Source: a virus (Duplodnaviria; Heunggongvirae; Uroviricota; Caudoviricetes). From it: a stretch of DNA of 15,670 bases. The stretch spans positions 1-15,670 of the IMG/VR virus record IMGVR_UViG_2778261161_000003; one strand, given 5' to 3'. A program made the translations under genes and the position numbers. How positions within the stretch are numbered: position 1 is the first letter of the stretch; each line of letters begins with the position of its first letter. The notes beneath the pieces are model-generated. The model had not been told where the DNA came from. It did not search any database and was given only the letters and a program-made list of their open reading frames with translations. This document shows, in pieces, positions 330-15,670 of this stretch.

Positions 330-470
330 TTACTGTTTACACTGCAAGAACGCCGCAAACTCCGCTCCCCAAAAGCTCATCCGGATTTCGCAGAGTGACC
401 CCTGCAGCATCCAGATGATGAGGATTGCCGTCACGCATAGGGTGATGGCGGTTAGCGATTTTTGCGACAT
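330..470 (-). CDS. Hok/Gef-family type I toxin, 46 aa
   Basis: Minus-strand translation MSQKSLTAITLCVTAILIIWMLQGSLCEIRMSFWGAEFAAFLQCKQ. One N-terminal hydrophobic helix, conserved SLCEIR motif and C-terminal E-x-AAFL-x-C tail, as in Hok/Gef/RelF toxins. Strong SD GGAGG (revcomp of 479-483) 8 nt upstream of ATG (470-468); stop TAA at 332-330. Confidence 0.8.
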   Translation of the reverse strand: MSQKSLTAITLCVTAILIIWMLQGSLCEIRMSFWGAEFAAFLQCKQ

Positions 471-655
471 AGCGCTTGCCTCCTTAGTGGAGAGGCGCTA
501 ACCTTCTACTTGCTAAGGTATGAAGTGTTAGGGCCTCGGGTTAACGTTACGTTGACTCGGGGCCTTCTCACATCTGGCCTTCGGGAAATCCTCCAACCAT
601 CAGTCGAAGGCACCCGCGCGTAATTTACCGTCTTTTGTTTATTCCGGCAATTCTG
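471..655 (-). promoter_or_regulatory. hok mRNA leader and promoter region; expected location of a cis-antisense Sok-like RNA on the plus strand
   Basis: Minus-strand sigma70-like promoter: -35 TTGCCG (650-645), 17-bp spacer, -10 TAAATT (627-622). This gives a transcript of about 400 nt ending at the 219-247 terminator, the usual hok mRNA size. The antisense RNA itself could not be delimited by eye. No intact mok-like overlapping ORF with a start codon upstream of hok was found. Confidence 0.35.
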
Positions 656-659
656 GCCA

Positions 660-920
660 TCAGTTCCGGGGGAGGGGTAGGTTCATCTGACTGCAACCTC
701 TGTGCGAAGCTGGCAGGTCATGCCAGGGGATGCCCTCCGAAGAGTGAACGCCAGAGGCGTGTTTCGATGTGAATTTATGGAAAGCTTCCAGTGTTGAGAA
801 GCATACGCCGCATTCCAGGTTGTTACACTGGTAATATTTTTGCCGCACGGTATTCGAATCATTTTCCGGGCGACTGGTGCGGATACGGGCAGATGCGCCA
901 CAAAGCGGACAACGGAACAT
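660..920 (-). CDS. ogr: Ogr/Delta-family zinc-finger late-gene transcription activator
   Basis: MFRCPLCGASARIRTSR...QCNNLECGVCF matches the P2 Ogr C-x2-C...C-x4-C zinc-finger layout and N-terminal MFxCPLC signature. SD GGGAGG 5 nt upstream of ATG (920-918). The ORF is 86 aa against 72 aa for P2 Ogr. Confidence 0.85.
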   Translation of the reverse strand: MFRCPLCGASARIRTSRPENDSNTVRQKYYQCNNLECGVCFSTLEAFHKFTSKHASGVHSSEGIPWHDLPASHRGCSQMNLPLPRN

Positions 921-1164
921 AGCGACCTCCCTTTGCGTGGTGCTGCCGCTATTTTAAGTTGTACTAGCTCAGACTCCAACCGACAGTTTGCGTAGCCAGA
1001 ACGCAATCAAACCTGGCAATCCGCTTTGAACTCGCAGCGACAAGCGTGCGTTCTCACATAAATGAAGATTATTGGCTTTTTACCATATGTGGGAGTGGTG
1101 CTTTTGTTAGTAAAAGGTGATGATAGGTTTTTTCCTATGCACACCCATTGGTTAGTCAAGAGAA

Positions 1165-3132
1165 ATGACAGAATTTGAGATAAATAGCCCACTACTTCAT
1201 CTCGCTTTGCTTGAAACACTGAAGCGTGACGACATTCATGATGAGATAGATTTGTTTCTTCCGTTTATTGCTGTAACAGCCTCCGAAATTGGCAAGCCTG
1301 TTATTAATGAAAATGATATACAGGATAAACTTCAGCAAAACTTCGGGTTCAAGCCGCCACTGGCAGCAGTGAAGGTATTGATGACGCGAGCCAAGAAAAG
1401 AGGCCTTCTAATCCGTGAAAATTTCGCCTTTATTCCAGTGCACGAAAAAATAACTGAATGGAAAAATGGATTTGAGCATAAAAAAGAAGATGTAGAAACA
1501 TCTCTTGCAAGTCTCAAGCGTGAATTTATCATTTTTACAGAAGTCAACTTTGGTAAAAAACTATCTGATTCTGAAGCTGAAAAGTTAATTATCGGATTTA
1601 TTGAGGTTAACGTTAGTAGTGTGATAAGTCATAGGGCTTATCATCGAATGGAACAAGCAGAACGTATTAAAAATACTAATCATGTTATTGCATCTTTTAT
1701 TAGTCATATTCACCGAAACCAACCAAGAATTTTAGAAGATTTCAGTCGATGTGTAAAAGGTATGTTACTGGCTAACTATCTCTTTTATGCAGATAAGGCC
1801 ACAGATAAAAAATCTTATAAGGGAATAACAGTTTACCTTGACTCTCCTATAGTCATTGGCATGCTTGGATATAGTGGACGCCAAGCAAAAGAGGCATATA
1901 CAGATTTTTTAAATCTTCTAAAATCACTAAGTATTGAGATAGTCATATTTGACCGTACACTTAATGAAATTGAAGGTTTACTATATGCATGGAAAAATGA
2001 TATTTCGAAGAAACGTTATGACCGTTTCAATACGAAGACACTTGAGTGGTTAAGGGCGCAAGGTTATGATGCTGAGCGTATTGATACTGACCTTAAGCTA
2101 CTTGAAAGTAATATCAATAAGCTTGATATCAATATTAAACTTGGTTTTACTCCGAAAACAAAGTTTCAATGCGATGAAGCTAAACTCCAGAGTGCTATTG
2201 GTCGGGCTTTTCACAGAGACAAAAATCTTGAGCACGATACTATTTGCATTTCCCGCATACATAATATGCGGGAAGGTAGAGTGATCAATAATCTTAGCCA
2301 GTCTTTTAGTGTTTTTGTTACGCCTAATACTAGCCTCGTCAAGGAAGCTAATGATTTTTTCCGTCATGATACTAAGCGCCAAGCTATTCCAGTCGTCGTT
2401 TCTGAACAGTGGATGACGGCTATGTTCTGGCTAAAAAAGCCAGATATTTATGCTCAACTACCTCAAGAGCAGCTTCTTTCAACGGCCTACAGTTTATTGT
2501 ACACCGACGATCGATTCTGGGAAGCTTTCATAAATCGTCTCGAAAATCTTGAAAAACGAGGAGATATTACTCAGGATGAGTTTCTTCAGATCCGCTGGGA
2601 TAGTGATCTTCTTCGGCTTGTGCATGATGTATCTGTCGATGTGGGAGAGGATTTTTCCGAGGAAGATGTTTTTGACGTGGTTAACACAATCAAGCGAAGG
2701 CATGAGGAAAAACATCAGAGTGATATGGCAGAGCTAGAAGACCGTGGCCGACAGGAACTAGAGAGTTTGCGTCAAAAAACATCCACACAACTTCAGACGA
2801 TTAATCTGGAAAAACAAGCTGCGCAGGCAAGAATTGAATCTTTAGAGCGAAAAATACGCAAGGGTAGTGCCTTTCTAGCTGGCGCTTTAGCTTGGTTTTT
2901 TAGTGGATTGCTGGTCTTTTCTCTTTGTCTGGCTGCTGTCAAAGGAATTCCCGATGAAATGCAGCCCGCTATGTTTAGAAGTGACTTATTCAGAGGAAAT
3001 CTGGTAGGTGTTAGCATAATTGTTACTTCATTATTTGGAGTGCTCAGTAGTGTTACAGGAATTGATTTAGCCATTTGTCATAAATTCATAAAATCACGTA
3101 TTGAAAAATGGTTTTTTTCATTATTTAGTTGA
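1165..3132 (+). CDS. Hypothetical 655-aa protein: large soluble N-terminal region, coiled coil, two C-terminal transmembrane helices; AT-rich cargo gene
   Basis: Long uninterrupted ORF in a visibly AT-rich segment. Heptad-like charged region at about aa 520-570 (ELEDRGRQELESLRQ...IESLERKIRK), then hydrophobic helices AFLAGALAWFFSGLLVFSLCLAAV and LVGVSIIVTSLFGVLSSVTGIDLAI. No Walker A or other catalytic motif recognised. Start ATG 1165 has only a weak SD. Confidence 0.7.
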   Translation: MTEFEINSPLLHLALLETLKRDDIHDEIDLFLPFIAVTASEIGKPVINENDIQDKLQQNFGFKPPLAAVKVLMTRAKKRGLLIRENFAFIPVHEKITEWKNGFEHKKEDVETSLASLKREFIIFTEVNFGKKLSDSEAEKLIIGFIEVNVSSVISHRAYHRMEQAERIKNTNHVIASFISHIHRNQPRILEDFSRCVKGMLLANYLFYADKATDKKSYKGITVYLDSPIVIGMLGYSGRQAKEAYTDFLNLLKSLSIEIVIFDRTLNEIEGLLYAWKNDISKKRYDRFNTKTLEWLRAQGYDAERIDTDLKLLESNINKLDINIKLGFTPKTKFQCDEAKLQSAIGRAFHRDKNLEHDTICISRIHNMREGRVINNLSQSFSVFVTPNTSLVKEANDFFRHDTKRQAIPVVVSEQWMTAMFWLKKPDIYAQLPQEQLLSTAYSLLYTDDRFWEAFINRLENLEKRGDITQDEFLQIRWDSDLLRLVHDVSVDVGEDFSEEDVFDVVNTIKRRHEEKHQSDMAELEDRGRQELESLRQKTSTQLQTINLEKQAAQARIESLERKIRKGSAFLAGALAWFFSGLLVFSLCLAAVKGIPDEMQPAMFRSDLFRGNLVGVSIIVTSLFGVLSSVTGIDLAICHKFIKSRIEKWFFSLFS

Positions 3133-3144
3133 CTTTTACTAAAG

Positions 3145-3180
3145 GAGAAATGCGGTTAATAATTTTGAACCGCATTTCTC
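3145..3180. repeat. Perfect 13-bp inverted repeat forming a stem-loop just after the 655-aa ORF
   Basis: GAGAAATGCGGTT (3145-3157), 10-nt loop, AACCGCATTTCTC (3168-3180). No U-tract on either strand, so it is not a canonical intrinsic terminator. Confidence 0.45.
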
Positions 3181-3314
3181 TGGGCTGTTATCTGATATAA
3201 TTAGTATCCATATCTAGTACAGATGAGGCTGTTAGAAGTGTCAAAACAACCTACGGTGGATAGAATTGACTGTGTGTCCAACGTTGAGAGGGATAATGTA
3301 ATAAAGCATTATCA

Positions 3315-3680
3315 GTGCACAATAGACATCTAGGGGGAACCTTGGCTAAGGTGACCAGAATTCAGGCCGGGCAATATGCAGTAGATGATGGGCGTTTCAT
3401 CGTAAAAAATAGCTCAGGATGGCTCGTTGTTGATGTTAATGGCACCCATGATTTTGGGCCTGTTCCAACGCTAGCAGCAGCGAAACAATATGTTGAGTCT
3501 GGCGCGGTTCCGTTAGGGCAACATAATTTGTCTACAGTACATGGCCGCAGACAAAGCAAAAAAGAGTTTAATGCATATCTGGCATCTGAAGCTAAGAATG
3601 GTAATCCAATGCCAGCTATTCTTTGGATCATTGTTCTTTGTATCATCGGTGGTGTTGTCTTGGCTGTGAGAGGTTATTAG
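3315..3680 (+). CDS. Hypothetical small protein (about 109-121 aa) with a C-terminal transmembrane anchor
   Basis: ORF ends in hydrophobic segment AILWIIVLCIIGGVVLAVRGY. Start ambiguous: ATG 3315 or in-frame GTG 3351 downstream of AGGGGGAA. Same strand as the 655-aa gene. Confidence 0.45.
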   Translation: MHNRHLGGTLAKVTRIQAGQYAVDDGRFIVKNSSGWLVVDVNGTHDFGPVPTLAAAKQYVESGAVPLGQHNLSTVHGRRQSKKEFNAYLASEAKNGNPMPAILWIIVLCIIGGVVLAVRGY

Positions 3681-3830
3681 CTTTGGATAGATTAGCTGAT
3701 TTTCTACTCACGGATTGATGCGGATAGCTATTATCTATGTCCGCTTTCTAGCGCAGAGCGGATTGTCAGATTAGGTGGACCTGTGCCGTAAACGTGTCAG
3801 CTTTGGTCTGAGCTAATGCATCCAAGTTGT

Positions 3831-4940
3831 TCACTCTGTTTCTGCTATCCATTCAGGGATTTTTGTCTCAAGCTCAAGCCGCGTGGTAAACCCACTGTCA
3901 TCAATGGTGTGCTCGGCTTTTGCAATAATCCAGTTCTGTTTATCAATGTCGCTTTTGAATCCTGTCACCGTGCCATGCATTTCGGGGTAGAGTTCTGCGC
4001 GTCCACGCGCCAGCGTGATGGAAAAAGATGCGGCCCCGCGTTGTAGCTGCTGCCACTTTGCCGCCGCTGCGCGTCTTGCTGCCTGTTCATTCTGGTAGGT
4101 TTTGCGTAACACAAATACGTTGCCTTCCGCTCCTTCCATATAATCGCCTTCGCGGCTGCTGCTTTGCTCCTTTTTCGGTTTTGGCGGTTTGCGGCGTTTC
4201 ACGCTGACTTTTTTCTTTTTCCCGTAGTTAAGATCAAGCCAGTAGGCGCGTACACCCGTATACGCCTCGCGGTCAGCAATTCGGAACTGATGGCGATCGC
4301 CGCTGCTGCGTGTGATGGTGAACGATGGCAGCGGCTGGCCCTGTGCGTTCACGCCACCGCCTGGCATGATGAATAACAGATTTCCGCTTTTTACCGTGGT
4401 GATTGCGCCCAGCATTTCCGCCATGCGCGTAAGGAAGGACATGTCGCTTTCTTCGGTCTGGTCGGCGTGGTCGATTTCGATATCCATCAGCATTTCGCTG
4501 ATTTGTGGTTTCAGGCCGTACCGGTGAGCAATGGCAGACACCACGCGCTCAACGGTCACATCATGCCAGGACACTTCACGCTTAACGTTAAATTCATCCC
4601 GAAAATCTGCGCTTCTGGCTGAAACAGTCAGCGTGTCCGGTGGCCCTTCGTGAGCGATTTCATCAACAATGTAAGTGCCTTTTTCGGTCAGTGGTTCTCC
4701 TTTCCAGCCAATGAGAACCGTCAGGTGAGCGCCCCGTGGCGGTAGCTGCAACTGGCCATCGGCATCATCCAGCGTGATGGTTAGCTGGTCAGCTTCAAAT
4801 CCTCTGTTGTCGGTCAGCGACAGACTCATCAGGCGCTCTGCCACGCCGGACAGCGCTTTACCTTCCGCAAGAATATCAAAATCCGGCATTTTCACGGGGT
4901 CTGCGCGCTGACTGAGTAATTGCATGGTGGTATCGGTCAT
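3831..4940 (-). CDS. D: Phage tail protein D (P2 late control gene D family)
   Basis: Translation from MTDTTMQLLSQRADPVKMPDFDILAEGKALSG onward has the overall layout of P2 gpD-family tail proteins, including the lysine-rich linker KKKKVSVKRRKPPKPKK. Start chosen at ATG 4940-4938 because of SD GGGAGG 6 nt upstream; the track ORF extends to 5072 but that N-terminal extension lacks an SD. Confidence 0.85.
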   Translation of the reverse strand: MTDTTMQLLSQRADPVKMPDFDILAEGKALSGVAERLMSLSLTDNRGFEADQLTITLDDADGQLQLPPRGAHLTVLIGWKGEPLTEKGTYIVDEIAHEGPPDTLTVSARSADFRDEFNVKREVSWHDVTVERVVSAIAHRYGLKPQISEMLMDIEIDHADQTEESDMSFLTRMAEMLGAITTVKSGNLLFIMPGGGVNAQGQPLPSFTITRSSGDRHQFRIADREAYTGVRAYWLDLNYGKKKKVSVKRRKPPKPKKEQSSSREGDYMEGAEGNVFVLRKTYQNEQAARRAAAAKWQQLQRGAASFSITLARGRAELYPEMHGTVTGFKSDIDKQNWIIAKAEHTIDDSGFTTRLELETKIPEWIAETE

Positions 4941-5097
4941 CTGCTCCCTCCCTGCGTGGCATAGTCGCATGTGCGTGCGGCGGGGGTTACTGCTTTTTGT
5001 TGTCGTCGGGCGGGGAGAACAGCGCAAGAGTGAGATTGTGCGCGTGGTGGGTGATGATTGTTGCCGAATCATTTAACGGATACAAGGGGCTGAAGCT

Positions 5098-6282
5098 ATG
5101 AGTGAAACTCGTTTTCATGGTGCCCGTGTTACGGAAAGTACCGACCTGGTAACAGCGATTAATGACGTTGATTCCAGTGTTATTGGTATCGTGGCAACGG
5201 CGGATGATGCGGACGCAAAGCAGTTCCCGCTGAACAAGCCCACGTTGCTGACCCGCGTCAATGACGTGCTGGGAAAATGCGGGACTACGGGGACGCTTTA
5301 TCGTGCGCTTAAGGCCATCGCAGACCAGGTGAGCACAAAAGTGATCGTCGTTCGCGTGGCTGAACACAAAGAAGAAGACGGTAAGACGCAGGATCAACTG
5401 GTTATCGGTGGTTCTGAATCTGACGGCAGCTATACAGGGATGTATGCGCTGCTTGTTGCAGAGCAGGATGAAAGTATCGGATACCGTCCGCGTATTCTGG
5501 CTGCGCCGGAGCTGGACACGGAGGCGGTAACAAAATCCCTGTGCGTGATTGCAGGTAAACTGCGCGCGTTTGTGTATGCCTCATGTCACGGCTGTAACAC
5601 GATGGCTGAGGCGATTACCTACCGCCAGAAATTCAACGAACGTGAGGTGATGCTCTTATGGCCGGACTTCATCGCCTACAACCCGAAAAGTGGCAAAAAC
5701 GAAACGTTCCCCGCGCCTGCCTATGCGTGCGGCCTTCGTGCGTACATTGACCATGAGCAGGGCTGGCACAAATCACTGTCCAACGTTCCGGTTAAAAATG
5801 TGCTGGGGATGTCGAGGCATGTGTTCTGGTCGTTGCAGGCCGAAGACAGTGATGCCAACAGCCTCAACAACAAAGAAATCACGACCATTATTCGTCGCAA
5901 CGGGTTCCGCTTCTGGGGCAACCGCACACCGGAAACGAACGCCTACATCTTTGAGGTGTATACCCGAACCGCACAGGTGCTGGCTGATTCAATTGCGGAA
6001 GCGCAGTTTGAAACCATCGACAGTCCACTGACGCCTGCGAACGTGAAGGATGTTATCAGTGCCATCAGGGCAAAACTGGATTCACTGGTTACTGCCGGGA
6101 AACTGATTGGCGCGGAGTGCTGGTATGACGTGGTGGATAACAGCACCACGGATTTACGTCAGGGGCGTGTGCGTATTCGCTACAAATATACGCCTGTTCC
6201 GCCACTGGAAGACATGGAGCTTTACCAGACGTTTACTGATGAATACTTTGAACCTGCATTTGCGGTGCTGGGAGGTGCCTGA
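5098..6282 (+). CDS. FI: Contractile tail sheath protein (P2 FI-like)
   Basis: 394 aa, collinear with P2 FI (e.g. WPDF, EQGWHK.LSNV, RRNGFRFWGNRT, YKYTPVPPLE). SD AAGGGG 8 nt upstream of ATG 5098. Confidence 0.9.
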   Translation: MSETRFHGARVTESTDLVTAINDVDSSVIGIVATADDADAKQFPLNKPTLLTRVNDVLGKCGTTGTLYRALKAIADQVSTKVIVVRVAEHKEEDGKTQDQLVIGGSESDGSYTGMYALLVAEQDESIGYRPRILAAPELDTEAVTKSLCVIAGKLRAFVYASCHGCNTMAEAITYRQKFNEREVMLLWPDFIAYNPKSGKNETFPAPAYACGLRAYIDHEQGWHKSLSNVPVKNVLGMSRHVFWSLQAEDSDANSLNNKEITTIIRRNGFRFWGNRTPETNAYIFEVYTRTAQVLADSIAEAQFETIDSPLTPANVKDVISAIRAKLDSLVTAGKLIGAECWYDVVDNSTTDLRQGRVRIRYKYTPVPPLEDMELYQTFTDEYFEPAFAVLGGA

Positions 6283-6794
6283 TGGCTGTGCCAAAACATC
6301 TTCGCTTTTTCACGCTGTTTGTGGATGGTGAAAACGAAGTGGGGAAGGTGACGTCCGTCACTCTGCCTAAACTGACGCGTAAAATAGACAGCTATCGTGG
6401 TGGTGGCATGATGGGGGCGGTGAGTATCGATCTCGGTCTGGATGATTCGGCTCTTGATGCGAGCTTTGTCATGGGCGGCGCGGTTCGTGAACTGTTCCTT
6501 AAGTATGGCGGCACGATTGACGGCACGCTGCTGCGCTTTGCAGGTGAATACTACACCGATGCAGAAAGCGACCTGTATGAAGTCGAAATGCGCGGACGTG
6601 TGACGGAAATTGATATGGGGGAAGCCAAACAGGGCGAAGCCACATCACACACTTACGCCATTAAAAACACCTACTACAAGCTGAGTGTTAACGATCGCCC
6701 GTTGTGGGAGATTGACCTGCTGAACTTCATTTACCGGAAGGACGGCAAGGACATTGTGCCCGATCGCATCCGTTCCGCGCTCGGGCTTGGCTGA
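6282..6794 (+). CDS. FII: Tail tube protein (P2 FII-like)
   Basis: 170 aa; MAVPKHLRFFTLFVDGENEVGKVTSVTLPKLTRKIDSYRGGGM matches the P2 FII N-terminus pattern. ATG overlaps the FI stop (TGATG), SD GGGAGGTG upstream. Confidence 0.9.
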   Translation: MAVPKHLRFFTLFVDGENEVGKVTSVTLPKLTRKIDSYRGGGMMGAVSIDLGLDDSALDASFVMGGAVRELFLKYGGTIDGTLLRFAGEYYTDAESDLYEVEMRGRVTEIDMGEAKQGEATSHTYAIKNTYYKLSVNDRPLWEIDLLNFIYRKDGKDIVPDRIRSALGLG

Positions 6795-6849
6795 TAAGTA
6801 ATATGCAGGCGGCGCAGTGCGTTGCCTCTGACTGAAAAGGAGACAACTG

Positions 6850-7224
6850 ATGAAAGACATCGATACTGAAACCCGGAATAACACCGTAGCGGATGATGTG
6901 ACGGCAGGTGAGGATATGGCTGTCGAACGTGGTGTAAAACTTTCCCGGCCAATTGAGCGTGGTGCCGAAAAAATCACATATGTGGAAATCACCGGGGCTA
7001 TTGAGCAGGCGGGATCCCTGCGTGGTCTGTCGCTGTCTGATGTGCTGAATCTGAAAGCGGATACCATGTTCACGCTGTTGCCTCGCGTGACCTCGCCACG
7101 ACTGGATGAAGTGATGATTAAAAAAATGTCGTCACGCGATTTTATTCAGTTGTGCGCTGTGGCTGTAAATTTTATGAGCGAGCCAGACTCTGGCGCGAAG
7201 AGCGTGCAGGAGACGGCAGCGTAA
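6850..7224 (+). CDS. E: Tail assembly chaperone E (zero-frame product)
   Basis: 124-aa ORF between the tube and tape-measure genes, the conserved position of gpE in P2-like tails; SD AAAGGAGA upstream of ATG 6850. Confidence 0.8.
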   Translation: MKDIDTETRNNTVADDVTAGEDMAVERGVKLSRPIERGAEKITYVEITGAIEQAGSLRGLSLSDVLNLKADTMFTLLPRVTSPRLDEVMIKKMSSRDFIQLCAVAVNFMSEPDSGAKSVQETAA

Positions 7225-7388
7225 TCACCCTGGTGTGCTTTGAGCACATCGAAGATCTGGTGGCGGATATTGCCGCCATTTTTAACTGGTCGCCCGCCGA
7301 AATCTTCATGATGACGCCCGGCGAAGTGGTTAGCTGGCGTGAGCGGGCGGCACTTCGCAGCGGGAATGCAGACAATGAAGACTCTTGA
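6850..7388 (+). CDS. E': E+E' fusion predicted from a programmed -1 translational frameshift
   Basis: The -1 frame relative to E is open from 7122 to TGA 7386-7388, overlapping the 3' end of E and running up to the tape-measure start. Same logic as P2 E/E' and lambda G/GT. The exact shift site is inferred. Confidence 0.55.
7167..7173 (+). promoter_or_regulatory. Candidate -1 slippery heptamer A AAT TTT
   Basis: Fits X XXY YYZ in the E zero frame (codons AAT 7168-7170, TTT 7171-7173), inside the E/E' overlap. An A7 run at 7120-7126 is an alternative but re-pairs less well. Confidence 0.4.
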
Positions 7389-10182
7389 TATCCGGGTCGC
7401 TTTCAGCGCCGTTGACAGGCTGACCCGGCCTGCCGAAAACGCCCTCCGCCTGATGGGGCAGTTTGGTGACTCCATCCAGCGAACGCAGGGGGCGATCAAA
7501 AATCTCGAGCGTCAGGCGCGATCATTCGAGCGCGCCCGCGACGCTGTCAGTAAAGCGGATGCGGGCATCGTGAAAGCACGACGCCAGCTTAACGCCCTTA
7601 ATCAGTTACAACGCACGGGTACAGTGCTCAGCGAAAAACAACAAAAGCTGATGCAGCAGTTAAGCACCCGGCTTGAACGCCTGAATGAATCGCGCACACG
7701 GGAAATTCAGAAAATGCGGGAGCTTGGCGGAGAGCTGAAACGCCACGGCATTTCCCTGACAGGCAGCGATAACACCATCCAGCAGGCCATCAGACGCACC
7801 GAACAGTACAACAACCAGCTTGAACGCGAACGGCAGGCGCTTGCGCGTGTAACGCGGGCGCGTGAGCGGTATTCGCGCGCGCAGGAAACCGCGGGAAAAC
7901 TGAAAACAGGTGGTGCACTGGCAACAGGTGCGGCAGCGGCGGGCGGCTATGCTGCCGGGCGTTTTTTGCAGCCCGCGATTGGGTTCGGGAAAGAGATGTC
8001 CCGCGTTCAGGCTCTGACGCGAATCGACAAAAACAGCCCGCAGTTTAAGGCGCTGCGTGAGCAGACGTTAAAACTTGGCTCTGAAACGCAGTTCACTGCA
8101 GGCGATGCCGCCAGTGGGCAGGCATTTCTTGCAATGGCTGGCTTCACACCGCAGGCCATTCAGGCTGCGCTTCCCGGCGTGCTGAGCATGGCAACGGCTG
8201 GCGGTATGGATCTCGGCGAGACGGCGGATATTGGCTCAAATATCCTGACGCAGTTCGGCCTTTCTGCTGACCAGATGGACCGGGTCGGTGACACACTCAC
8301 CGCAGCGTTTACCCGTACCAACACTGACCTTCGCGCACTGGGCGAAACCATGAAATATGCAGGTCCGGTAGCGGGTAAGCTGGGAATATCGCTGGAGCAG
8401 GCCGCAGCGATGGCTGGCGTGTTGGCGAATATGGGTATCAGAGGGAGTGATGCTGGGACGGCAATGCGTGCCAGCCTGGCTCGTCTGGCATCACCGCCAA
8501 AGGCGGCAGCAGAGGCGCTGAAAGAGCTTGGTGTGGCTGTTTCTGACGCGAACGGCAAAATGCGCCCGATGGAGGATGTGCTGGCCGACCTTTATAAAGC
8601 CACCCGCAAATACGGGGAAGTTGACCGGGTATCGTTCTTTAAGGACATTGCCGGAGAAGAGGCTTTCACATCATTTATGGCCCTCGTTGATGCGGCAGGT
8701 GACGGCTCCCTGCCCAAACTGAGAAAAGAACTTGAAGGCGCGCGCGGTGAGGCTGAACGCACGGCAAAGGTTATGGCCAACAACCTTGACGGCGATCTGA
8801 AATCACTCAGCAGTGCATGGGAAGGGTTGCGCATCCGCATTGCAGATCTGATTGACGGTCCGCTGCGTTCTGTTACGCAGTGGCTCACGCGAGTGGTCTC
8901 AAAGGTGACGGCGCTGGCGCAGGCCCATCCCGCACTGACGCGCCAGCTACTGATAGCAGGCGGTGCGTTGCTGGCAATGACTGCAACGGTTGGCTCGTTG
9001 TCGCTGGCTATTGGTGTGCTTGCTGGCCCGCTGGCAAAACTGCGTCTTGGTTTTTCTCTCCTGACCGGATCAATGAATGCTGTCAGGGTCCTGCCAGCAC
9101 TATGGGGAATGGTGACGGGTTCCGTTTCTTTACTGGGAGGCGCTATCGGGGCGTTGTTCAGTCCGGTTGGTCTTATCGTGGCTGCGCTTGCCGGAGCTGC
9201 CGTTCTTATCTGGAAATACTGGGATCCCATCAGGGCATTTTTTGCCGGGGTGTTCAGCGGGATTATGGAAAGGCTGACCCCGTTGCGCGAAACCTTTGAA
9301 CGGTTTGGTCCTGTTTTTGACGCAATCGGAAGCGGGATCAGCCAGGTGTTTAACTGGTTTAAATCGCTGCTGTCACCGATGGAGTCCAGCAAGGAAACGC
9401 TGGATAAATGTACCAGTGCTGGCGAGATATTCGGTAACGTTCTTGGCGGTGCGTTACAACTTGTTCTGACACCTGCAAAAATGCTACTGGATACGCTGGC
9501 GTGGATACTTGAAAAACTTGGCGTCCTTCCGGATGAAGCGGAAAGGGCGCGCAAGAAAATCGAAGACGCACAGCGTGCGGCCATTCTTCAGGACAAGGTT
9601 GCCTTGCTTCAGGGGGACCTGGCGAAAATCAATCCGCCGAAGCCTGTGGAAAATGGCAATGGCACCGGAGGTGATAAACCCAAAGACAACAAACCGCTCA
9701 CAGACAGCAATACCGGGACGCTACGCAGACTCAGCAAAATTGCTGATAACACAGGTAAGCTGGTTGATGAGACGAAAAAACGCATTGGCCCCGGCGATAT
9801 TGTCTTTAAGAACCTGCCCCGAGCACTTGCTGTTCGTGGGGAGTGGCAGGAGCGGAAGATTGCGCAGGTCAGTAAGCCTGCCCCCGCAATTAATATCACA
9901 CCTGTGGTTCCGGCTCCGCTGCCTCCGGCGCTGGTCCCTGTTGTTGCGGCCAGCTCCCGCCCGGTGGCAGAGGCCATACGATCGCCAGTGGCATCAGTTC
10001 CTGCAACTTCCCGTAACCGGGAGCCTGTTGCCTCCGGATTTGGCGGTGAAATTCATGTTCATCTGCATAACGTTGTTACGCAGAATCCCCGCGAACTGGC
10101 GAAACTGGTCGGTGAAATGGTCAGGGCAGAAATGGAACGGCGCGCCCGTGCCGGGCGTGGAAGTTTTTACGATAAAGATTGA
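7375..10182 (+). CDS. T: Tail tape measure protein (P2 gpT-like)
   Basis: About 935 aa, alpha-helical N-terminal region, Gly/Ala-rich hydrophobic central segment, Pro-rich C-terminal region; position after E/E'. Start set at ATG 7375 (GGGAA 8 nt upstream); in-frame alternatives at 7366 and 7339. Confidence 0.88.
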   Translation: MKTLDIRVAFSAVDRLTRPAENALRLMGQFGDSIQRTQGAIKNLERQARSFERARDAVSKADAGIVKARRQLNALNQLQRTGTVLSEKQQKLMQQLSTRLERLNESRTREIQKMRELGGELKRHGISLTGSDNTIQQAIRRTEQYNNQLERERQALARVTRARERYSRAQETAGKLKTGGALATGAAAAGGYAAGRFLQPAIGFGKEMSRVQALTRIDKNSPQFKALREQTLKLGSETQFTAGDAASGQAFLAMAGFTPQAIQAALPGVLSMATAGGMDLGETADIGSNILTQFGLSADQMDRVGDTLTAAFTRTNTDLRALGETMKYAGPVAGKLGISLEQAAAMAGVLANMGIRGSDAGTAMRASLARLASPPKAAAEALKELGVAVSDANGKMRPMEDVLADLYKATRKYGEVDRVSFFKDIAGEEAFTSFMALVDAAGDGSLPKLRKELEGARGEAERTAKVMANNLDGDLKSLSSAWEGLRIRIADLIDGPLRSVTQWLTRVVSKVTALAQAHPALTRQLLIAGGALLAMTATVGSLSLAIGVLAGPLAKLRLGFSLLTGSMNAVRVLPALWGMVTGSVSLLGGAIGALFSPVGLIVAALAGAAVLIWKYWDPIRAFFAGVFSGIMERLTPLRETFERFGPVFDAIGSGISQVFNWFKSLLSPMESSKETLDKCTSAGEIFGNVLGGALQLVLTPAKMLLDTLAWILEKLGVLPDEAERARKKIEDAQRAAILQDKVALLQGDLAKINPPKPVENGNGTGGDKPKDNKPLTDSNTGTLRRLSKIADNTGKLVDETKKRIGPGDIVFKNLPRALAVRGEWQERKIAQVSKPAPAINITPVVPAPLPPALVPVVAASSRPVAEAIRSPVASVPATSRNREPVASGFGGEIHVHLHNVVTQNPRELAKLVGEMVRAEMERRARAGRGSFYDKD

Positions 10183-10194
10183 GGAGTCATGGCC

Positions 10195-10683
10195 ATGATG
10201 ATGATCTACGGCATGTTTGTTTTTGAGCTGCGCACGCTGCCGCATCAGCAGTTACAGCAAAACAAAAGCTGGCGGCATGTGAAAAATGAACGCGTTAACC
10301 GTTCAGCAAGCTGGCAGTATATCGGTGCAGGTGATGATCGCATCGTGCTTTCTGGTGTGCTTTATCCTGAAATTACAGGTGGCGAAGTGTCGCTGTCGCT
10401 GCTGACCACGCAGGCGTATACAGGACGACCCTGGCCTTTGATTGATGGTGTCGGGCAGATTTACGGCATGTATGTCCTGACCGGAACGAATACGACCCGT
10501 TCCGAGTTTGATCGCTACGGTAAGGCGAAAAAGATAGAATTTTCACTGACCCTTGAACGCTGTGATGAGGATTTGCGGGAGCGCCTGCAATCCTCATCGT
10601 TCAGCGATATGCTGTCCGGCTTCAAAGATAAGGTGACATCATCTCTTAACAGCGCGGCCAGTTCAGTTAAAGGACTGTTCTGA
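10195..10683 (+). CDS. U: Tail protein U (P2 gpU-like)
   Basis: MAMMMIYGMFVFELRTLPHQQLQ, GAGDDRIVLSGVLYPEITGG and WPLIDGVGQIYGMYVLTG resemble P2 gpU. SD GAGGAG (10181-10186) is 8 nt before ATG 10195; ATG 10189 is an in-frame alternative. Confidence 0.88.
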   Translation: MMMIYGMFVFELRTLPHQQLQQNKSWRHVKNERVNRSASWQYIGAGDDRIVLSGVLYPEITGGEVSLSLLTTQAYTGRPWPLIDGVGQIYGMYVLTGTNTTRSEFDRYGKAKKIEFSLTLERCDEDLRERLQSSSFSDMLSGFKDKVTSSLNSAASSVKGLF

Positions 10684-10692
10684 TTTTACATT

Positions 10693-10737
10693 GCCGCCAA
10701 TACCCTCATATTGGGTAATGGGCGGCTTGTTGTTATA
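10693..10737. terminator. Stem-loop between convergent U and glycosyltransferase genes; probable bidirectional terminator
   Basis: GCCGCCAATACCC / GGGTAATGGGCGGC imperfect hairpin (10693-10726) followed by a T-rich run TTGTTGTTATAT. Confidence 0.5.
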
Positions 10738-10779
10738 TAATATATCGTAGGTCCTGATAAAACTGTTGAGGTTTCTACT

Positions 10780-12018
10780 TTATAAAGAATTGCTACTTTC
10801 TAATTCTGGGTTTCTGGAACTATTTTTACAACCTAAATCCGAGTGGTAATTCGGTATATCGTTTGTCAAATCTTGTTTGATAGCATTAATTAAGATCATT
10901 ATGTCGAATTTATGCATATCGTCGCCCCCTTCAGACCTTAGATGTTCGGATGTGGTGAGTTGAGTCGCTAATTTGCTGTTTGGCCCCCACACAATATTAT
11001 TTTCGAATTTTCCTTCATGCATTCTGTTATTATATATACAGTATTGTCTAATGTTTAATGCACTGGCTAAATGTACAATGGCAGTATCTACAGTTATAAC
11101 AAAATCAGCATGGCGAACCAATGCAAATGAACATCCGGCATCAGAAAATGGAGATAGAGACACATTATCCAATCCATTGTGATTAATCTGTTTTCCCATA
11201 TTAAAAACTATTGTGTGATATCCCTTAAGGTTATTAAGGTAAGCTAGTACTTTTTTTATCTGTTCATCAGATAAGGTTCTGCTATTCTGAGAGCCATAAG
11301 GGTTAAATATAACTAATTTTTTGTTTTTTTTTCTGAATTCATTTGCAACAATATTTGCTGGTTCATATATTTTGTTGTCAAAATTAAGCGCTGCAGCATA
11401 ATTATTATTTTTTATCTTTAGTAAAGATAAAACTTTTTTCATTCTTTCAGATGTGTGAATGGAACGATTATCGATTATATTTGTATCAAAAATAGTTACG
11501 GCAGGATGATTAAAACAGATAGAGTGTTTAGGTCTAAGTAAATGTAGTGTTTGCAATCTGGTTATCGCTGTGTTATCAAAATTTGAGAAGTCAACAACAA
11601 GATCTACATTCAGTTTTTTTATCTTTGCTTTTAGTTCGTTAAATTTATTTTTCTCGTAAGATATAAAGGCATCCACGCCAACAATGTCAGTAAAGAGGAA
11701 TGATACTCTTGAAGGTGCTATCACATATACCACCATACCGGATTTTTGAAGTTGTTTAATAAACCCTGAGGTAACGATGCCGTCACCAATGGCTTGCATG
11801 TGCATGAAAATGCACACTGTTTTATAACTATCCGGCTGTAATGATGTTTTCCTTCTGTATCGCATTTTTAGAAATGCCAGTCTGGCCTTCGTCTTTATCT
11901 TTTTTGTTTTAATATTTCGCTGTCTGTTAAGCTGTTTTAACGATGAAATAACATTCATAATGGTACCCTGAAATTCCAAATCACACATGTCATCCGTAAT
12001 GAGCAGGGTACTATACAA
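10780..12018 (-). CDS. GT-B-fold glycosyltransferase, family 9 (heptosyltransferase-like) with N- and C-terminal extensions; AT-rich cargo gene
   Basis: N-terminal KTVCIFMHMQAIGDGIVTSGFIKQL resembles the GT9 motif (ILIIRLSSLGDV type). C-terminal FALVRHADFVITVDTAIVHLASALNIRQYCIY resembles the GT9 nucleotide-sugar-binding motif (GNDSG.MHLAAAL type). Start uncertain: TTG 12018, ATG 11988 or ATG 11958, all with weak SD. Confidence 0.65.
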   Translation of the reverse strand: MYSTLLITDDMCDLEFQGTIMNVISSLKQLNRQRNIKTKKIKTKARLAFLKMRYRRKTSLQPDSYKTVCIFMHMQAIGDGIVTSGFIKQLQKSGMVVYVIAPSRVSFLFTDIVGVDAFISYEKNKFNELKAKIKKLNVDLVVDFSNFDNTAITRLQTLHLLRPKHSICFNHPAVTIFDTNIIDNRSIHTSERMKKVLSLLKIKNNNYAAALNFDNKIYEPANIVANEFRKKNKKLVIFNPYGSQNSRTLSDEQIKKVLAYLNNLKGYHTIVFNMGKQINHNGLDNVSLSPFSDAGCSFALVRHADFVITVDTAIVHLASALNIRQYCIYNNRMHEGKFENNIVWGPNSKLATQLTTSEHLRSEGGDDMHKFDIMILINAIKQDLTNDIPNYHSDLGCKNSSRNPELESSNSL

Positions 12019-12052
12019 AAAACTGGACTACAATGGTTTGAAATGAAAGCCT

Positions 12053-12652
12053 TTATGCTTGTTTACTCCTTGATTCCACTGGGGAAGCTGGCCACTCAAT
12101 ATCCGGTGCTCTTGATGTATCAACACGGTTCAGCAGCACTCGATACTTCTTCCATGCCACCAGTAACGATGTTTCTTCCTCTGTTGCAATATTCAAATCT
12201 ACGGCATCTTGAAGTGGCGAAATATGCTCACTGGCTACCTGCATGAGGCTGTTTTTTGTTTCTTCCGCCTCCCGTATCCGGAACACTTTTTCTGCTTCCG
12301 TATCCTTCACCCAGGCTATGCCGTTCCACTTCTGATATTCCCCTTCCGGCGACAACCAGGTGACATTTTCCGGTAACGGACCGAGTTCAGAAATAAATAA
12401 CGCGTCGCCGGAAGCCACGTCATAAACCGTTTTACCACGATGATCTTCAACGAGATGCCAGGACGCCCCATCACTGTTGAAAACAGCCACGAAGCCAGCT
12501 GGAATATCTGGCGGAGCAATATCAGTACTATTTGCAGGCAGACCTGTATGAGGTGGAATGTATGCATCACCTTCACCAATAAATTCATTGGTTCCGACCA
12601 GCAGATTATAAATTTTTATGGTCCGTGATTGTTCACTCATTCTGAATGTCAT
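12053..12652 (-). CDS. tfa: Tail fibre assembly chaperone (lambda Tfa / P2 gpG family)
   Basis: [51 protein letters not shown] and C-terminal [36 protein letters not shown] match lambdoid Tfa proteins closely. Start ATG overlaps the fibre stop (TAATG). Confidence 0.9.
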
Positions 12653-13734
12653 TATGCAAGCCTCACAATATAGTTAAATGCGATGTTTTTTACGGTGTTT
12701 TCTGCGTTCCCCGTAGCATTAACGGTGATGGTGTGTCCGTGGGGACCAATAATGACAGAATGGGCATGAGCACCAATGCCGATAGTGTGGTTATGGGCAC
12801 CGATATATACATTGTGAGCATGCCCTCCTGCGCTCGACGTGGTACCAGTACCTAACGCAGCGTTATAACCGGCTGATACACCATTCCCCGCGCCAGTGTG
12901 ACCAACAGGTATATTGTGTGAATGAGCTCCTGCGCTATTTGTGGTTTTTGTGCCGTAATCAAATGAACTGGTCGTTTTAGTACCGTAATCAAACGACGAT
13001 GTGGTTTTCGTCCCCAAATCAGTACTGGATGCGCTGGCGCTGTGGGTGTGCGATTTAATGCCGTCCTGTTCCTGAGACAATACGGCACGACCACTGGCAG
13101 GTTTGCCCTTGATAGTCCAGCCACGCATATCAGGGATCACGCCTGACGGATAAGCGACTGCAAGTTTCGGGTATGCAGATTTGTCAAAAGTCTGCCCCTG
13201 CATCAGGGCATAACCAGACGGAACGGTATCTGATGGCCACGGAATCGGTGCACCGACTGGATAAAACTCTTCAGGAGGATGAGCCGAGGTGTAAAGCTGC
13301 GCCCACGGCGACCAGTTTGCGTCGGTCGTATCCCGTCGTGAACGAATAAATGCCGGAGCATGAGCACCGCTTATACCACTCCAGCCGATGAGTAATTCGC
13401 CTTCGCCAACGGCTGTCATCCCTTTCAGGTGAATGATATTTCCATACGCTGTTGGATATCCGTTGTTATACGCCTCGTATAACTCCAGACCTGTGGCCCC
13501 CTGCATATTATCTGTCAGGGCGGTCAGCCGACCTTTTGAAGCCAGATTAACTGACGATACTGCTGTCCCATCTGACGGTAACGCCCCGATCTCTGATGCT
13601 GTTGGCTTATTCCTGGAGTTATAGTCCCTTCGCCAGCCAGGAGCATAAGCATCACCATGATTAATATAAGTAAATTGAGCATTAGGGATGCCTTCACCGC
13701 TGGATGTACTCGGTGTGGTAATGCGTATGGTCAT
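12652..13734 (-). CDS. Short tail fibre protein (360 aa) with tail-collar-like region and His-rich C-terminal tip
   Basis: [34 protein letters not shown]...IPDMRGW resembles the phage tail-collar domain. Followed by [10 protein letters not shown] tandem repeats and GAHxH/GHxH repeats typical of fibre tips. Much shorter than P2 gpH (669 aa). Confidence 0.8.
12936..13025 (-). repeat. Intragenic tandem repeat, about 3 x 30 bp, in the tail fibre gene
   Basis: CCGTAATCAAA recurs at 12953-12963 and 12983-12993 with a degenerate third copy at about 13012-13022; encodes [10 protein letters not shown] / [10 protein letters not shown] / [10 protein letters not shown]. Confidence 0.6.
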
Positions 13735-13835
13735 TGCGCCGCGGGTGCCAATAACCCATGCTCATCGCGGTAGGGATAGAACGCTGCTAAACGCTCAAAG
13801 TCTGCCTGTTCGTGTGTGTTCAGGACTTTTGCCAT
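13731..13835 (-). CDS. 34-aa ORF translationally coupled to the tail fibre gene; possible remnant of an early (cox-position) gene
   Basis: [34 protein letters not shown]; its TGA overlaps the fibre ATG (ATGA at 13734-13731). Sits where cox lies in P2, divergent from C. No convincing homology recognised. Confidence 0.3.
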
Positions 13836-13875
13836 GTGTGATAACCTGCGCTATCTGTGGTTGTTTGTGACTTGG

Positions 13876-13893
13876 TGTACTTATAAGTACACC
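13876..13893. promoter_or_regulatory. Operator candidate O1: perfect 18-bp palindrome GTGTACTTATAAGTACAC
   Basis: Perfect dyad in the short divergent region between the 34-aa ORF and C. Confidence 0.5.
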
Positions 13894-13908
13894 TTGTGCG
13901 CAAGCTTA

Positions 13909-13926
13909 GTGTACTTATAGGAACAC
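13909..13926. promoter_or_regulatory. Operator candidate O2: GTGTACTTATAGGAACAC (16/18 identical to O1)
   Basis: Second copy 33 bp centre-to-centre from O1, overlapping the C ribosome-binding site (AGGAA). Confidence 0.45.
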
Positions 13927-13931
13927 TGTCA

Positions 13932-14240
13932 ATGCTTATCGGTGAAAAAATTAGAGTGATTCGTGAATCAGAGGATTTAACGCGCGAAGAATTTTGCGGC
14001 CTGATTGATGTGCCTATCGGCACTTTGCGTCGTTATGAAACGGGGCGGATTGAAAACATAGGGGGCGAAGTGCTTATCAAGATTGTTAATCACCCTCGCT
14101 TTTTTAAGTACATGAATTGGCTTATGACGGGAAAAACAAATGAGGCTGCTGGGCAGATCAGTCCGTCTCTCTCCCCTGATGGGCCAAAAAGCACATCGCC
14201 TTCTCAAAAACCCCGCAAGACTGGCACACAGCCCGGCTAA
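13932..14240 (+). CDS. C: P2 C-type immunity repressor
   Basis: About 102 aa; N-terminal HTH (GEKIRVIRESEDLTREEFCGLIDVPIGTLRRYETG) and C-terminal FFKYMNWLMTGK...GQISPSL parallel P2 C (FTKYTLWFMTNQ...GQIAPAL). Start ATG 13932 with SD AGGAA 8 nt upstream; located immediately upstream of int. Confidence 0.85.
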   Translation: MLIGEKIRVIRESEDLTREEFCGLIDVPIGTLRRYETGRIENIGGEVLIKIVNHPRFFKYMNWLMTGKTNEAAGQISPSLSPDGPKSTSPSQKPRKTGTQPG

Positions 14241-14289
14241 TCATGGAGCGCTGGGGGCATGGTGGTCTTGTAACGCTGGGGTTTCACGA

Positions 14290-15264
14290 ATGAGCATAAA
14301 ATCAATTCCGGGAGGGTATCTTCTTGACATGCGCCCGGAGGGGCGTAAAGGCAAACGCATTCGTAAAAAATTTAAAACGAAATCGGATGCAGTTTTATAT
14401 GAGCGGTGGGTGCTGGCGCAACAGCATAACAATGAGTGGAAAGGAAACTCCATTGATCGCCGTCCGCTGTCAGTGCTTATTGACTTGTGGTGGAAATACC
14501 ACGGCCAGCTAATGAAGTCAGGGCATAACACGCGCCTTAAATTGCTGCGCTTGAGTGAGGCAATGGATGACCCGTGCGTGCATAAACTTAATACAACGAT
14601 GCTCACCGAGCTACGTGTGTCCAGGATAGAGCAGGGGATACAGCCCAGCACCATAAATCGAGAGATTGGGGCGTTAAGCGCGATGTTTACCGCACTCATC
14701 TCATCCGGCCATTTTCTTAACGATAACCCCGTTCAAGGCCTTAAAGGAATGAAGGTTAACGAGCGCGAAATGGGATATCTGAGTAAGTCTGAATGTGTTC
14801 AGTTGCTGGATGCACTGGCTGAAAATCCCGATGAACGGCTGGCTGTCGAAATCCTTCTGTCGACCGGGGCGCGATGGGGCGAGGTAGCGGCACTGGAGCA
14901 GCGCCGTGTTCTTCATTGTCGAATCACTTTTTCAAAAACGAAGAACAGCAAAAACCGTACCGTTCCTATTTCTGAAAGCCTGTTTGAAAAGATCAAAATA
15001 CGGGGCGGGAAACTGGTGTTTCCGACGCTGGATTATCCATTGGTTCGCGATGTCATCAAAACGGTCGCACCTGATGTTCCTGACGGCCAGGCTGTTCATG
15101 CGCTGCGCCACACCTTCGCCAGTCATTTCATGATGAACGGCGGCAATATTCTGACGCTCCAGAAAATTCTGGGGCACGCAAAGATTCAGACAACGATGAT
15201 TTATGCCCATCTTGCGCCGGATTACTTGCAGGATGCGGTGAGATTTAATCCTATTGCTGGGTAA
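14290..15264 (+). CDS. int: Tyrosine recombinase, P2 Int family
   Basis: MSIKSIPGGYLLDMRPEGRKGKRIRKKFKTKSDA N-terminus and catalytic motifs LSTGARWGEVAAL, HALRHTFASHFMMNGG, LGHAKIQTTMIYAHL are collinear with P2 integrase. Start placed at ATG 14290; the track ORF begins upstream at 14140. Confidence 0.9.
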   Translation: MSIKSIPGGYLLDMRPEGRKGKRIRKKFKTKSDAVLYERWVLAQQHNNEWKGNSIDRRPLSVLIDLWWKYHGQLMKSGHNTRLKLLRLSEAMDDPCVHKLNTTMLTELRVSRIEQGIQPSTINREIGALSAMFTALISSGHFLNDNPVQGLKGMKVNEREMGYLSKSECVQLLDALAENPDERLAVEILLSTGARWGEVAALEQRRVLHCRITFSKTKNSKNRTVPISESLFEKIKIRGGKLVFPTLDYPLVRDVIKTVAPDVPDGQAVHALRHTFASHFMMNGGNILTLQKILGHAKIQTTMIYAHLAPDYLQDAVRFNPIAG

Positions 15265-15274
15265 GGAGGATGTT

Positions 15275-15670
15275 GTGGAAAAAACAGTTAATAGCGATTT
15301 GCATTTAGGTCAGTACTGGAGAATAGACATTGTATGCGATCCAGAACTTCGAGATGAGGTTGAGCAATATTTTTCTCTACACGATGTTGGTTTTAGCAAA
15401 ATTGAAGTTTTTTCCGTCGAAAATCCATATAAACTTGCTCTGTTCTTTGATTTCGCGAAGAAGGGTGTGGAGGTTGCAAAAGCCATTATGGGACTCTTAG
15501 ACCGAAATGATATTGAAATAACGATGTATCGTGCTACGGACAGTAGCCCGCAGTCTGTAAAAAGCATCAAATTGCGTAAGTCTGAAGACGTAGAGAAATG
15601 TAAAGATTTGCTTAGTACGTGTGTTGCAATTGGCGTTCAACGAAATAAGGAAAAAGAGGGGAGTGAATGA
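15275..15670 (+). CDS. Hypothetical 131-aa protein, AT-rich; predicted GTG start directly after the int stop
   Basis: SD AAGGAGGA (15263-15270) overlapping the int stop, GTG at 15275 in frame with track ORF 15254-15670. No family recognised. Confidence 0.45.
   Translation: MEKTVNSDLHLGQYWRIDIVCDPELRDEVEQYFSLHDVGFSKIEVFSVENPYKLALFFDFAKKGVEVAKAIMGLLDRNDIEITMYRATDSSPQSVKSIKLRKSEDVEKCKDLLSTCVAIGVQRNKEKEGSE

Follow-up and report, generated by a model that had tools for sequence, protein, structure and literature searches.

The 15,670-nucleotide (nt) stretch of DNA that forms positions 1 to 15,670 of IMG/VR record IMGVR_UViG_2778261161_000003 (the window; source contig NTPM01000003.1 of NCBI assembly GCA_002463805.1) raises the question of why a shortened tail fibre gene lies directly behind the early promoter region of a prophage. 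The window contains a remnant of a P88-like prophage (Xuanwuvirus, P2 family) that is integrated between ihfA and btuC. On its minus strand, an open reading frame (ORF) of 34 amino acids (aa; 13731–13835) in the position of the cox gene and a 360-aa fibre ORF (12652–13734) overlap in the tetranucleotide ATGA (13731–13734), and genes for a Tfa fibre chaperone and a GT9-like glycosyltransferase follow. An earlier note, made from the sequence alone, had described these ORFs, their coordinates and their overlap, and all of them agree with the ORF list and the sequence; it interpreted the arrangement as a deletion junction that couples the fibre gene to the cox position and could make fibre, chaperone and glycosyltransferase early genes repressible by the immunity repressor C. 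We conclude that a single event, an illegitimate deletion of about 23 kb mediated by microhomology, very probably produced this region, that the fibre gene fragment next to it is probably a silent, eroding remnant, and that the breakpoint in cox is one that recurs in other prophages.

The junction between cox and the fibre gene

The arrangement is real because independent gene callers gave identical 34-aa and 360-aa genes in the source assembly (GCA_002463805.1) and because three contigs, one of them an independent Logan assembly of run SRR6512537, encode the 34-aa junction peptide; an assembly artefact is rejected since independent assemblies carry the junction. The fibre DNA from 13200 to 13755 has 99.8% identity with the 710-aa fibre gene of an O104:H4 prophage and with many others; over 13752–14300, the DNA of cox, C and the integrase gene int is 100% identical to that of intact prophages (e.g., O157:H7 FRIK944). 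Judged by these identities, the region is genuine gene DNA and not a set of chance ORFs. Both flanks of the junction are collinear and near-identical with parts of intact prophages that are not adjacent there.

Three-way alignments (the window, the intact fibre gene and the intact cox gene) place the deletion junction at 13752–13755, where the two homologies meet at a 4-nt microhomology (TAAC) that is common to cox and the fibre gene; the proposal of a deletion junction behind the early promoter region is thereby borne out. On the cox side, 13752–13835 (minus strand) correspond to native codons 1–28 of a gene for a Cox-like protein of 92 aa and are identical to the intact cox in O157:H7 FRIK944, which confirms the 34-aa ORF as a remnant in the cox position; the rest of this ORF (13731–13751, minus strand) is derived from the fibre gene and consists of six out-of-frame codons (LAPAAQ) and a TGA. 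On the other side, translation and alignments identify 12652–13755 (minus strand) as fibre-derived DNA that begins at codon 344/345 of the 710-aa fibre, with the 360-aa ORF (residues 351–710) starting at the internal Met351. The deletion that we propose would have joined cox codon 28 to fibre codon 344/345 at the common TAAC and would have removed the rest of cox, the early and replication genes, the head, lysis and baseplate genes, and fibre codons 1 to 343–344; the equivalent interval between the two breakpoints in NZ_CP022086.2 is, from its coordinates, about 22.9 kb. The cox frame reads six codons into out-of-frame fibre DNA and ends at a TGA that overlaps an internal Met codon of the fibre gene, and it is for this reason that a 34-aa and a 360-aa ORF arise.

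What remains of cox is too short to act. The intact 92-aa protein matches phrog_575 ('Cox-like excisionase and repressor') over residues 34–84; only residues 1–28 of the 92 are left, so the phrog_575 region is wholly lost and no Cox function can remain. A tblastn search of isolated phages for this cox/C immunity class found no match, save one in Klebsiella that is 38% identical.

The fibre fragment is about half-length, as the earlier note stated (360 of 710 aa). It includes the collar domain (13111–13254, minus strand; fragment residues 161–208; Pfam PF07484, E 1.3e-11) and a T4 gp37-like receptor-binding tip with six HxH motifs (12655–13266, minus strand; residues 157–360; PDB 2XGF, E 2.1e-78). 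The note was right that the distal collar and the His-rich tip are retained and wrong that nothing else is: about 156 aa of shaft precede the collar, and residues 1–59 match residues 279–334 of the Mu fibre S. Pfam finds the N-terminal Phage_tail_fib domain (PF12571) in the 710-aa relative (E 4.8e-54) and not in the 360-aa ORF; likewise, the two Phage_fiber_2 repeats (PF03406) occur only in the full-length relative. By its domain content, the fragment is a shaft, a collar and a gp37-type tip that lack the baseplate-attachment module. Residues 157–360 align with residues 28–242 of the crystallised piece of T4 gp37 (PDB 2XGF), the collar and HxH repeats included; compared with T4 gp37 and the lambda Stf fibres, however, the tip in the window is a fragment that has neither an N-terminal attachment domain nor a virion to attach to. 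Just before the HxH needle, three 30-nt tandem repeats (12940–13021) encode 10-residue fibre repeats; T4 gp37 has fewer repeats in the equivalent stretch.

The 360-aa protein might instead be a normal, full-length member of a short-fibre family that has its own late promoter, with the 34-aa ORF as a separate small gene. In favour of this, the ORF is uninterrupted, has an ATG start and precedes a chaperone gene, that is, its C-terminal receptor-binding region precedes tfa as in P2 gpH-type fibres. However, identity to the 710-aa fibre genes extends 21 nt upstream of the ATG and ends exactly where the identity to cox starts, every PHROG and PDB match is to the C-terminal part of longer fibres or fibre profiles, the N-terminal attachment domain is absent, and the supposed small gene is 28 codons of cox followed by six out-of-frame fibre codons. 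The alignments with the 710-aa fibre genes reject a short-fibre family, to which we assign a negligible probability.

The same alignments explain the ATGA overlap as a by-product of the deletion, because the 'start' of the fibre ORF is the internal Met351: the overlap is confined to this deletion allele, and what is the ATG here is codon 351 of the fibre gene in the intact relatives, where the TGA is an out-of-frame triplet inside the coding sequence. Of the translational coupling that had been suggested, the overlapping stop and start codons stand; evolved coupling does not, as the overlap is accidental and no Shine-Dalgarno sequence can be read ahead of the fibre ATG.

The early promoter and the genes behind it

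To the right of the junction, the immunity switch is of the P2 type. The C-type repressor gene (13932–14240, plus strand) is intact and encodes a 102-aa helix-turn-helix (HTH) protein (HTH_3/HTH_31; phrog_147) that is also described as an HTH protein in relatives. It is divergent from the early operon, and the putative −35 element of the early promoter Pe (TTGACA; 13927–13932, minus strand) overlaps the C start codon by 1 nt. Alignment with P2 and a second immunity class, which is 88% identical, shows this hexamer to be invariant, the annotated Pe −35 of P2 (25884–25889) included. We infer, from the sequence only, that TAAGCT (13903–13908, minus strand; 18 nt downstream of the −35) is the Pe −10; the O104-class relative has TAAATT in this position with the same spacing.

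Two operator-like elements flank the putative Pe −10, as O1 and O2 do in P2: an imperfect palindrome, AGTGTACTTATAGGAACACT (13908–13927; repeat families D5 and I1), in the Pe spacer, and a perfect 20-bp palindrome, GGTGTACTTATAAGTACACC (13874–13893; inverted repeat I13, direct repeat D5), just past the −10. The O104 class has a different palindrome at the equivalent positions (locus L010, ~1090–1180) and keeps the −35 and the spacing; we consider the palindromes operator-like because their sequence is class-specific, as expected of operators. The switch thus shares with that of P2 a C homologue, a Pe −35 (TTGACA) at the C start codon and two operator elements around the Pe −10; it differs in that the operators of P2 are 8-bp direct repeats 22 bp apart, whereas those in the window are 18–20 bp palindromes spaced by 34 bp, and this difference suggests that the repressor binds in another way. 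It differs also in that Cox is cut to 28 of 92 residues in the window, so that the switch cannot flip.

On the minus strand between Pe and the glycosyltransferase gene we found no convincing terminator, only one weak 5-bp stem in the fibre gene, a count at chance level; the earlier description of fibre, tfa and glycosyltransferase genes directly behind the early promoter region therefore holds, with no recognisable terminator between them. Because the Pe −35 is conserved and no convincing terminator precedes the glycosyltransferase gene, read-through from Pe is plausible: with Pe and its operators intact, any Pe transcript would read through the truncated cox gene (cox'), the fibre fragment, tfa and probably the glycosyltransferase gene, and control of the last three by C is plausible as well. 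Such a transcript would not be expected, however. The early region of the intact relatives encodes a 'derepression protein', and that region is deleted here; with C intact and both Cox and the antirepressor region gone, Pe should be permanently repressed. Since nothing in the remnant lifts repression by the intact C and no Shine-Dalgarno sequence precedes the fibre ATG, silence is the predicted state, and the fibre fragment would be an inert remnant that is still eroding.

The chaperone gene itself (12053–12652, minus strand) is intact (199 aa; Pfam Caudo_TAP, E 2.4e-44), and, as in intact phages, its start codon overlaps the stop codon of the fibre gene. An identical Tfa protein occurs very commonly, normally after a 710-aa fibre and with the GT9 gene following; it belongs to the lambda gpK/Tfa family, and the window DNA is 89–91% identical to lambdoid stf-tfa genes. 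Within the tfa coding sequence, 12111–12309 (minus strand) match Rfam IS009 (RF02111; 187 bits), a match that probably reflects homology to tfa-like DNA in the cryptic prophages of K-12 and not a separate RNA gene.

The glycosyltransferase gene (10780–11958, minus strand; Pfam Glyco_transf_9, E 2.4e-6) has its annotated ATG at 11958 in an ORF that spans 10780–12018, and its GC content is 26–38%. In relatives, its slot between tfa and U holds an invertase (P88, together with an alternative fibre segment) or a serine O-acetyltransferase (O104:H4). This slot, after gene G, is a variable moron position (position 2) of P2-like phages and contains neaT in CFT073 (PMC3573123). The GT9 gene is likely a lysogenic-conversion gene that acts on lipopolysaccharide (LPS). 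Cargo genes in the moron slot usually carry their own signals, and this counts against its control by C.

Sister alleles indicate how little the fragment matters. The nearest, in MEI7BO1-21 (locus L001; a remnant 99% identical to the window), has three mismatches in the 12.8 kb to the left of the junction (1–12793) and retains no more of the fibre gene than its final 138 nt. To the right of the junction (13752–15670), 1.9 kb contain 14 differences from the window, of which six fall in the C-terminal part of the C gene (14165–14225); this contrast between left and right suggests that the right flank was recombined or that the two alleles arose separately. It is doubtful that the MEI7BO1-21 allele came from the window allele by a simple secondary deletion, both because the flanks differ in this way (14 versus three differences) and because its microhomology is better with intact cox. 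In a further allele (loci L016 and L018), fibre codon ~553 is joined to the middle of int via GATAT, with loss of cox', the promoters Pe/Pc, C and half of int; the join lies around 5490–5530 in these loci, equivalent to window position ~13130 joined to ~14775. These losses indicate that the fibre fragment and even immunity are dispensable and that the remnant is still eroding; loss of nearly all of the fibre fragment in sister alleles also argues against selection for it.

This evidence bears on the possibility that the fusion is a selected rewiring, in which inactivation of C would switch on a C-controlled operon of fibre tip, Tfa and GT9; the trigger might be the antirepressor of a co-resident or superinfecting P88-like phage or satellite, and the benefit LPS modification or Tfa supplied in trans. 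The intact Pe and operators, the apparent lack of a terminator before GT9, the reinitiation that the ATGA overlap would permit to some extent, and a 'derepression protein' of intact relatives that could work in trans are all compatible with such an operon. However, the cox-fibre allele is rare (three contigs in the whole gene collection and 0 of 5,426 complete Escherichia coli genomes, with the exact junction 40-mer absent from the GTDB species representatives), the nearest sister has discarded all but 138 nt of the fibre gene and another allele has discarded C and Pe, the fragment is unable to attach to a baseplate for which no genes are left, and its ATG lacks a preceding Shine-Dalgarno sequence. 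We consider a selected rewiring highly unlikely; functional rewiring is unproven and, on the comparative evidence, probably of no consequence.

Several observations weigh against a single deletion that left a silent, decaying remnant. The parent was reconstructed from two relatives, O104:H4 for the fibre gene and O157 FRIK944 for cox, because none of the intact prophages retrieved combined the same fibre with the same cox class. The ORF of the fibre fragment is still uninterrupted and differs from the O104:H4 fibre gene at ~12 nt across 1104 nt; decay of the fibre coding sequence is not demonstrated, and only the sister alleles display loss. Pe activity, repression by C and read-through are predicted from homology with P2; a generic sigma-70 scan did not report Pe in the operator region, and its placement follows that homology.

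A recurrent breakpoint in cox

The fibre endpoint in MEI7BO1-21 is unlike that in the window, yet the cox endpoint is identical, and this led us to a survey of the cox site. At least seven alleles, each with a different left partner, break cox at the same point within ~3 nt (13750–13755, codon 28/29); besides the window, the loci with the shared breakpoint are L001, L030, L037, L038, L039, L078 and L089. The left partner is fibre codon 344 in the window (allele A; microhomology TAAC), fibre codon ~664 in MEI7BO1-21 (allele B; TA), the 3' end of replication gene A in L030 and L078 (allele D; GGTAAC), lysB in E1316 (allele E; the imperfect GTA[A]CCC), a point just upstream of gene R in TUM1887 (allele F; TA) and a site in the early region in AR_0128 and its relatives, which belong to a second cox class (allele G); in IMG/VR locus L089 (allele I), the breakpoint lies beside cargo that encodes an ATPase and an S8 peptidase. 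The E1316 'DUF2570 domain-containing protein' (L037, 4759–5085) is an annotation artefact: it begins with the cox ATG and results from a cox'::lysB deletion fusion.

With a slash at the breakpoint, all of the alleles keep the sequence to the right of TA/ACCCATGC (TA/ACCC) or, in the second cox class, of TA/ATCC; the same site is thus used in two classes that differ in sequence there (GGTAACCC versus GGTAATCC). Two further sequences describe the cox site, namely CCATGCTCATCGCGGTA, for which the 60 nt upstream cover the breakpoint zone, and GTACTGGTAACC. In the complete genomes with the first cox class, a 120-nt probe with the site at its centre finds 112 of 116 intact and four broken; among the matches listed, two of the broken genomes break at probe positions 55–57, and MEI7BO1-21 should be the third. 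In 81 further loci (metagenomes, IMG/VR and GTDB), every departure from intact cox within the 30–60 nt upstream falls exactly at the site. The allele in ET791 breaks 30 nt further on, again after ...GTA/ATC. The anchored deletions all run in the direction of Pe transcription, downstream of Pe, for ~5–24 kb, and the microhomologies (2–6 nt) are confined to the final ~6 nt of the cox sequence that was kept. Some of the alleles are clonal, the survey took the site as its centre, and three broken O104-class genomes and one class-1 genome fell outside the inspected set.

If the cox end were an ordinary, random endpoint of illegitimate recombination, the shared breakpoint would reflect chance or hidden common descent. 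The microhomologies are indeed short and generic and always include TA, the AR_0128 type recurs clonally in four genomes and two IMG/VR contigs, and the window and MEI7BO1-21 are near-identical on the left. However, partners as different as two points in the fibre gene, gene A, lysB, the region upstream of R, a cargo region and the early region all adjoin the same TA/A, and homologous recombination can convert none of the junctions into another, so that secondary deletions would have to reuse the old junction exactly every time; for these reasons the breakpoint is not random, and the 81 further loci, in which each sequence that was not intact over the 30–60 nt upstream broke exactly at the site, speak to the same effect. 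We regard chance or descent as improbable. The recurrence implies a site-specific fragile point or a protected DNA end. We tentatively propose, with a confidence somewhat short of even, that cox codon 28/29 in P88-like prophages is a site-specific fragile point at which a defined DNA end is joined to variable downstream sites. Such a point would repeatedly give 'locked' remnants, which lose the switch, replication and lysis genes but retain those for immunity, integrase, tail, fibre and cargo; the window would be one such product.

The breakpoint pattern, in which a precise, protected-looking proximal end is joined to a variable distal end through 2–6 nt of microhomology, resembles end-joining after a break at a fixed point. 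In one scheme, the break would arise at a fixed point ~140 nt past the Pe start, such as the place where a replication fork runs into a stalled transcription complex; the end nearer the promoter would be shielded, RecBCD would resect the distal end for 5–24 kb before microhomology end-joining, and the survivors would be enriched because lethal early and lysis genes are lost. The one-directional deletions of variable length downstream of Pe, the confinement of the microhomology to the last ~6 nt on the cox side, and the use of the site in both cox classes agree with this scheme; the second class also excludes a GGTNACC restriction site, since it has GGTAATCC and still breaks there. However, a protected end is pure inference, RecBCD would normally attack both ends, and folding predictions give no stable DNA hairpin there (z-scores near 0), so that a stable single-stranded hairpin is not supported as a cause either. 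We judge a protected end unlikely.

In another scheme, the site is the cleavage point of a site-specific enzyme (a recombinase, an HUH nickase or another nuclease) that joins it to pseudo-sites. The second anchor in ET791 likewise follows ...GTA/ATC, after a small hairpin, and the combination of a fixed anchor, a variable partner and 2–6 nt of identity resembles secondary-site recombination and deletions at rolling-circle nick sites. However, the anchor is unrelated to the att core (GGCCGCTCTGCGGCCTTTTT, the ihfA terminator), so a secondary site for Int is not supported; no Hin/Cin-type crossover site is present, as the cox anchor has no match to the invertase crossover consensus with up to three mismatches; the gene A partner in L030 is ~310 nt from an ori-like motif (the P2-like GGAGTC), which is itself unlike the anchor, so the gene A ori nick site is not supported either; and the remnant encodes no candidate enzyme except Int. 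Cleavage of the IS608 type at TTAC is not supported because the products in four alleles lack the C. To an enzyme site we give the same low probability as to a protected end; among the candidates, we rank highest a site-specific nick and the stalling of a transcription complex downstream of Pe, and both are speculation.

Nested deletions from a fixed anchor are known in other settings, namely as insertion sequence (IS)-mediated adjacent deletions and as nick-site deletions at rolling-circle origins. As in those systems, one endpoint is constant to the nucleotide, the other varies in one direction, and short identity is found at the joint; unlike in them, no IS, origin or known recombination site is present at the cox anchor, so the likeness is one of pattern and not of membership.

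The remnant and its relatives

From left to right, the remnant consists of hok and ogr, a 655-aa orphan ORF, D (minus strand), FI-FII-E-E'-T-U (plus strand), the GT9 gene, tfa and the fibre fragment (all minus strand), and cox', C, int and a 131-aa ORF. Neither the ORF list nor the annotation of the window, the source contig and locus L001 includes head, baseplate, lysis or replication genes in the window. Intact relatives occupy the same ihfA-btuC site (e.g., O104:H4 2011C-3493 and O157:H7 FRIK944).

The gene order is that typical of Xuanwuvirus, with D divergent from FI-U and a cargo slot between U and tfa. P88 and its relatives (Peduoviridae, Xuanwuvirus) share with the window int-C/cox, D divergent from FI-FII-E-T-U, the cargo slot, tfa, the fibre gene and hok-ogr, and the D/FI DNA is 92–94% identical; unlike the intact prophages of the P88 type, the window lacks the ~23 kb between cox codon 28 and fibre codon 344, and it has the GT9 gene where P88 has its invertase. 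The FI-FII-E-T-U block (3831–10683) is inverted relative to P2, with D divergent. A rearrangement within the remnant is rejected, since P88/Xuanwuvirus phages have this order natively and a search for inverted repeats at its flanks found none; D is divergent as well in the intact prophages of O104:H4 and strain A8 at the same site.

At the left end, the remnant keeps a hok/gef-type toxin gene (330–470, minus strand) and an intact gene for the late activator Ogr (660–920, minus strand). Between ogr and D are the 655-aa ORF (1165–3132, plus strand) and a 109-aa ORF (3351–3680, plus strand), neither of which, like the 131-aa ORF, has a usable match in Pfam, PADLOC or PHROG scans. In relatives, this interval contains IS5 and DUF3800 (O104:H4) or a 340-aa orphan (strain A8), and it looks like a variable cargo or defence slot. 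At the right end, the integrase gene (14290–15264, plus strand) is intact (annotated as phage integrase in L001; Pfam Phage_integrase in the source contig). The att core is the ihfA terminator hairpin and is duplicated at both prophage ends (L001, 3140–3159 and 18218–18237); a 10-nt repeat, GTGACCACAT, near each prophage end may be an arm site for Int.

Cryptic prophage remnants in E. coli (e.g., e14, Rac and Qin in K-12) hold on to fibre/tfa fragments and cargo genes. The window is likewise a decayed prophage with immunity, integrase, a 3' fragment of the fibre gene, tfa and low-GC cargo. In the literature, we found no description of the specific cox-fibre junction, the GT9 cargo or a breakpoint hot spot in cox.

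The junction in the window is thus ordinary prophage decay and adds another deletion scar to a known kind of prophage; what looks like promoter rewiring and translational coupling arose by accident and is probably silent. For annotation, the 360-aa 'tail fibre', the 34-aa ORF and the E1316 'DUF2570 protein' should be treated as products of fusion or truncation and not as native genes. The recurrent breakpoint in cox is the only feature that might surprise a specialist. If it is true that a site in a switch gene seeds one-directional deletions, prophage inactivation in this family would be partly channelled and not random, the fragile site would help to explain why remnants of the same architecture recur in E. 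coli, and the cox site would be a tractable system for the study of illegitimate recombination in vivo.

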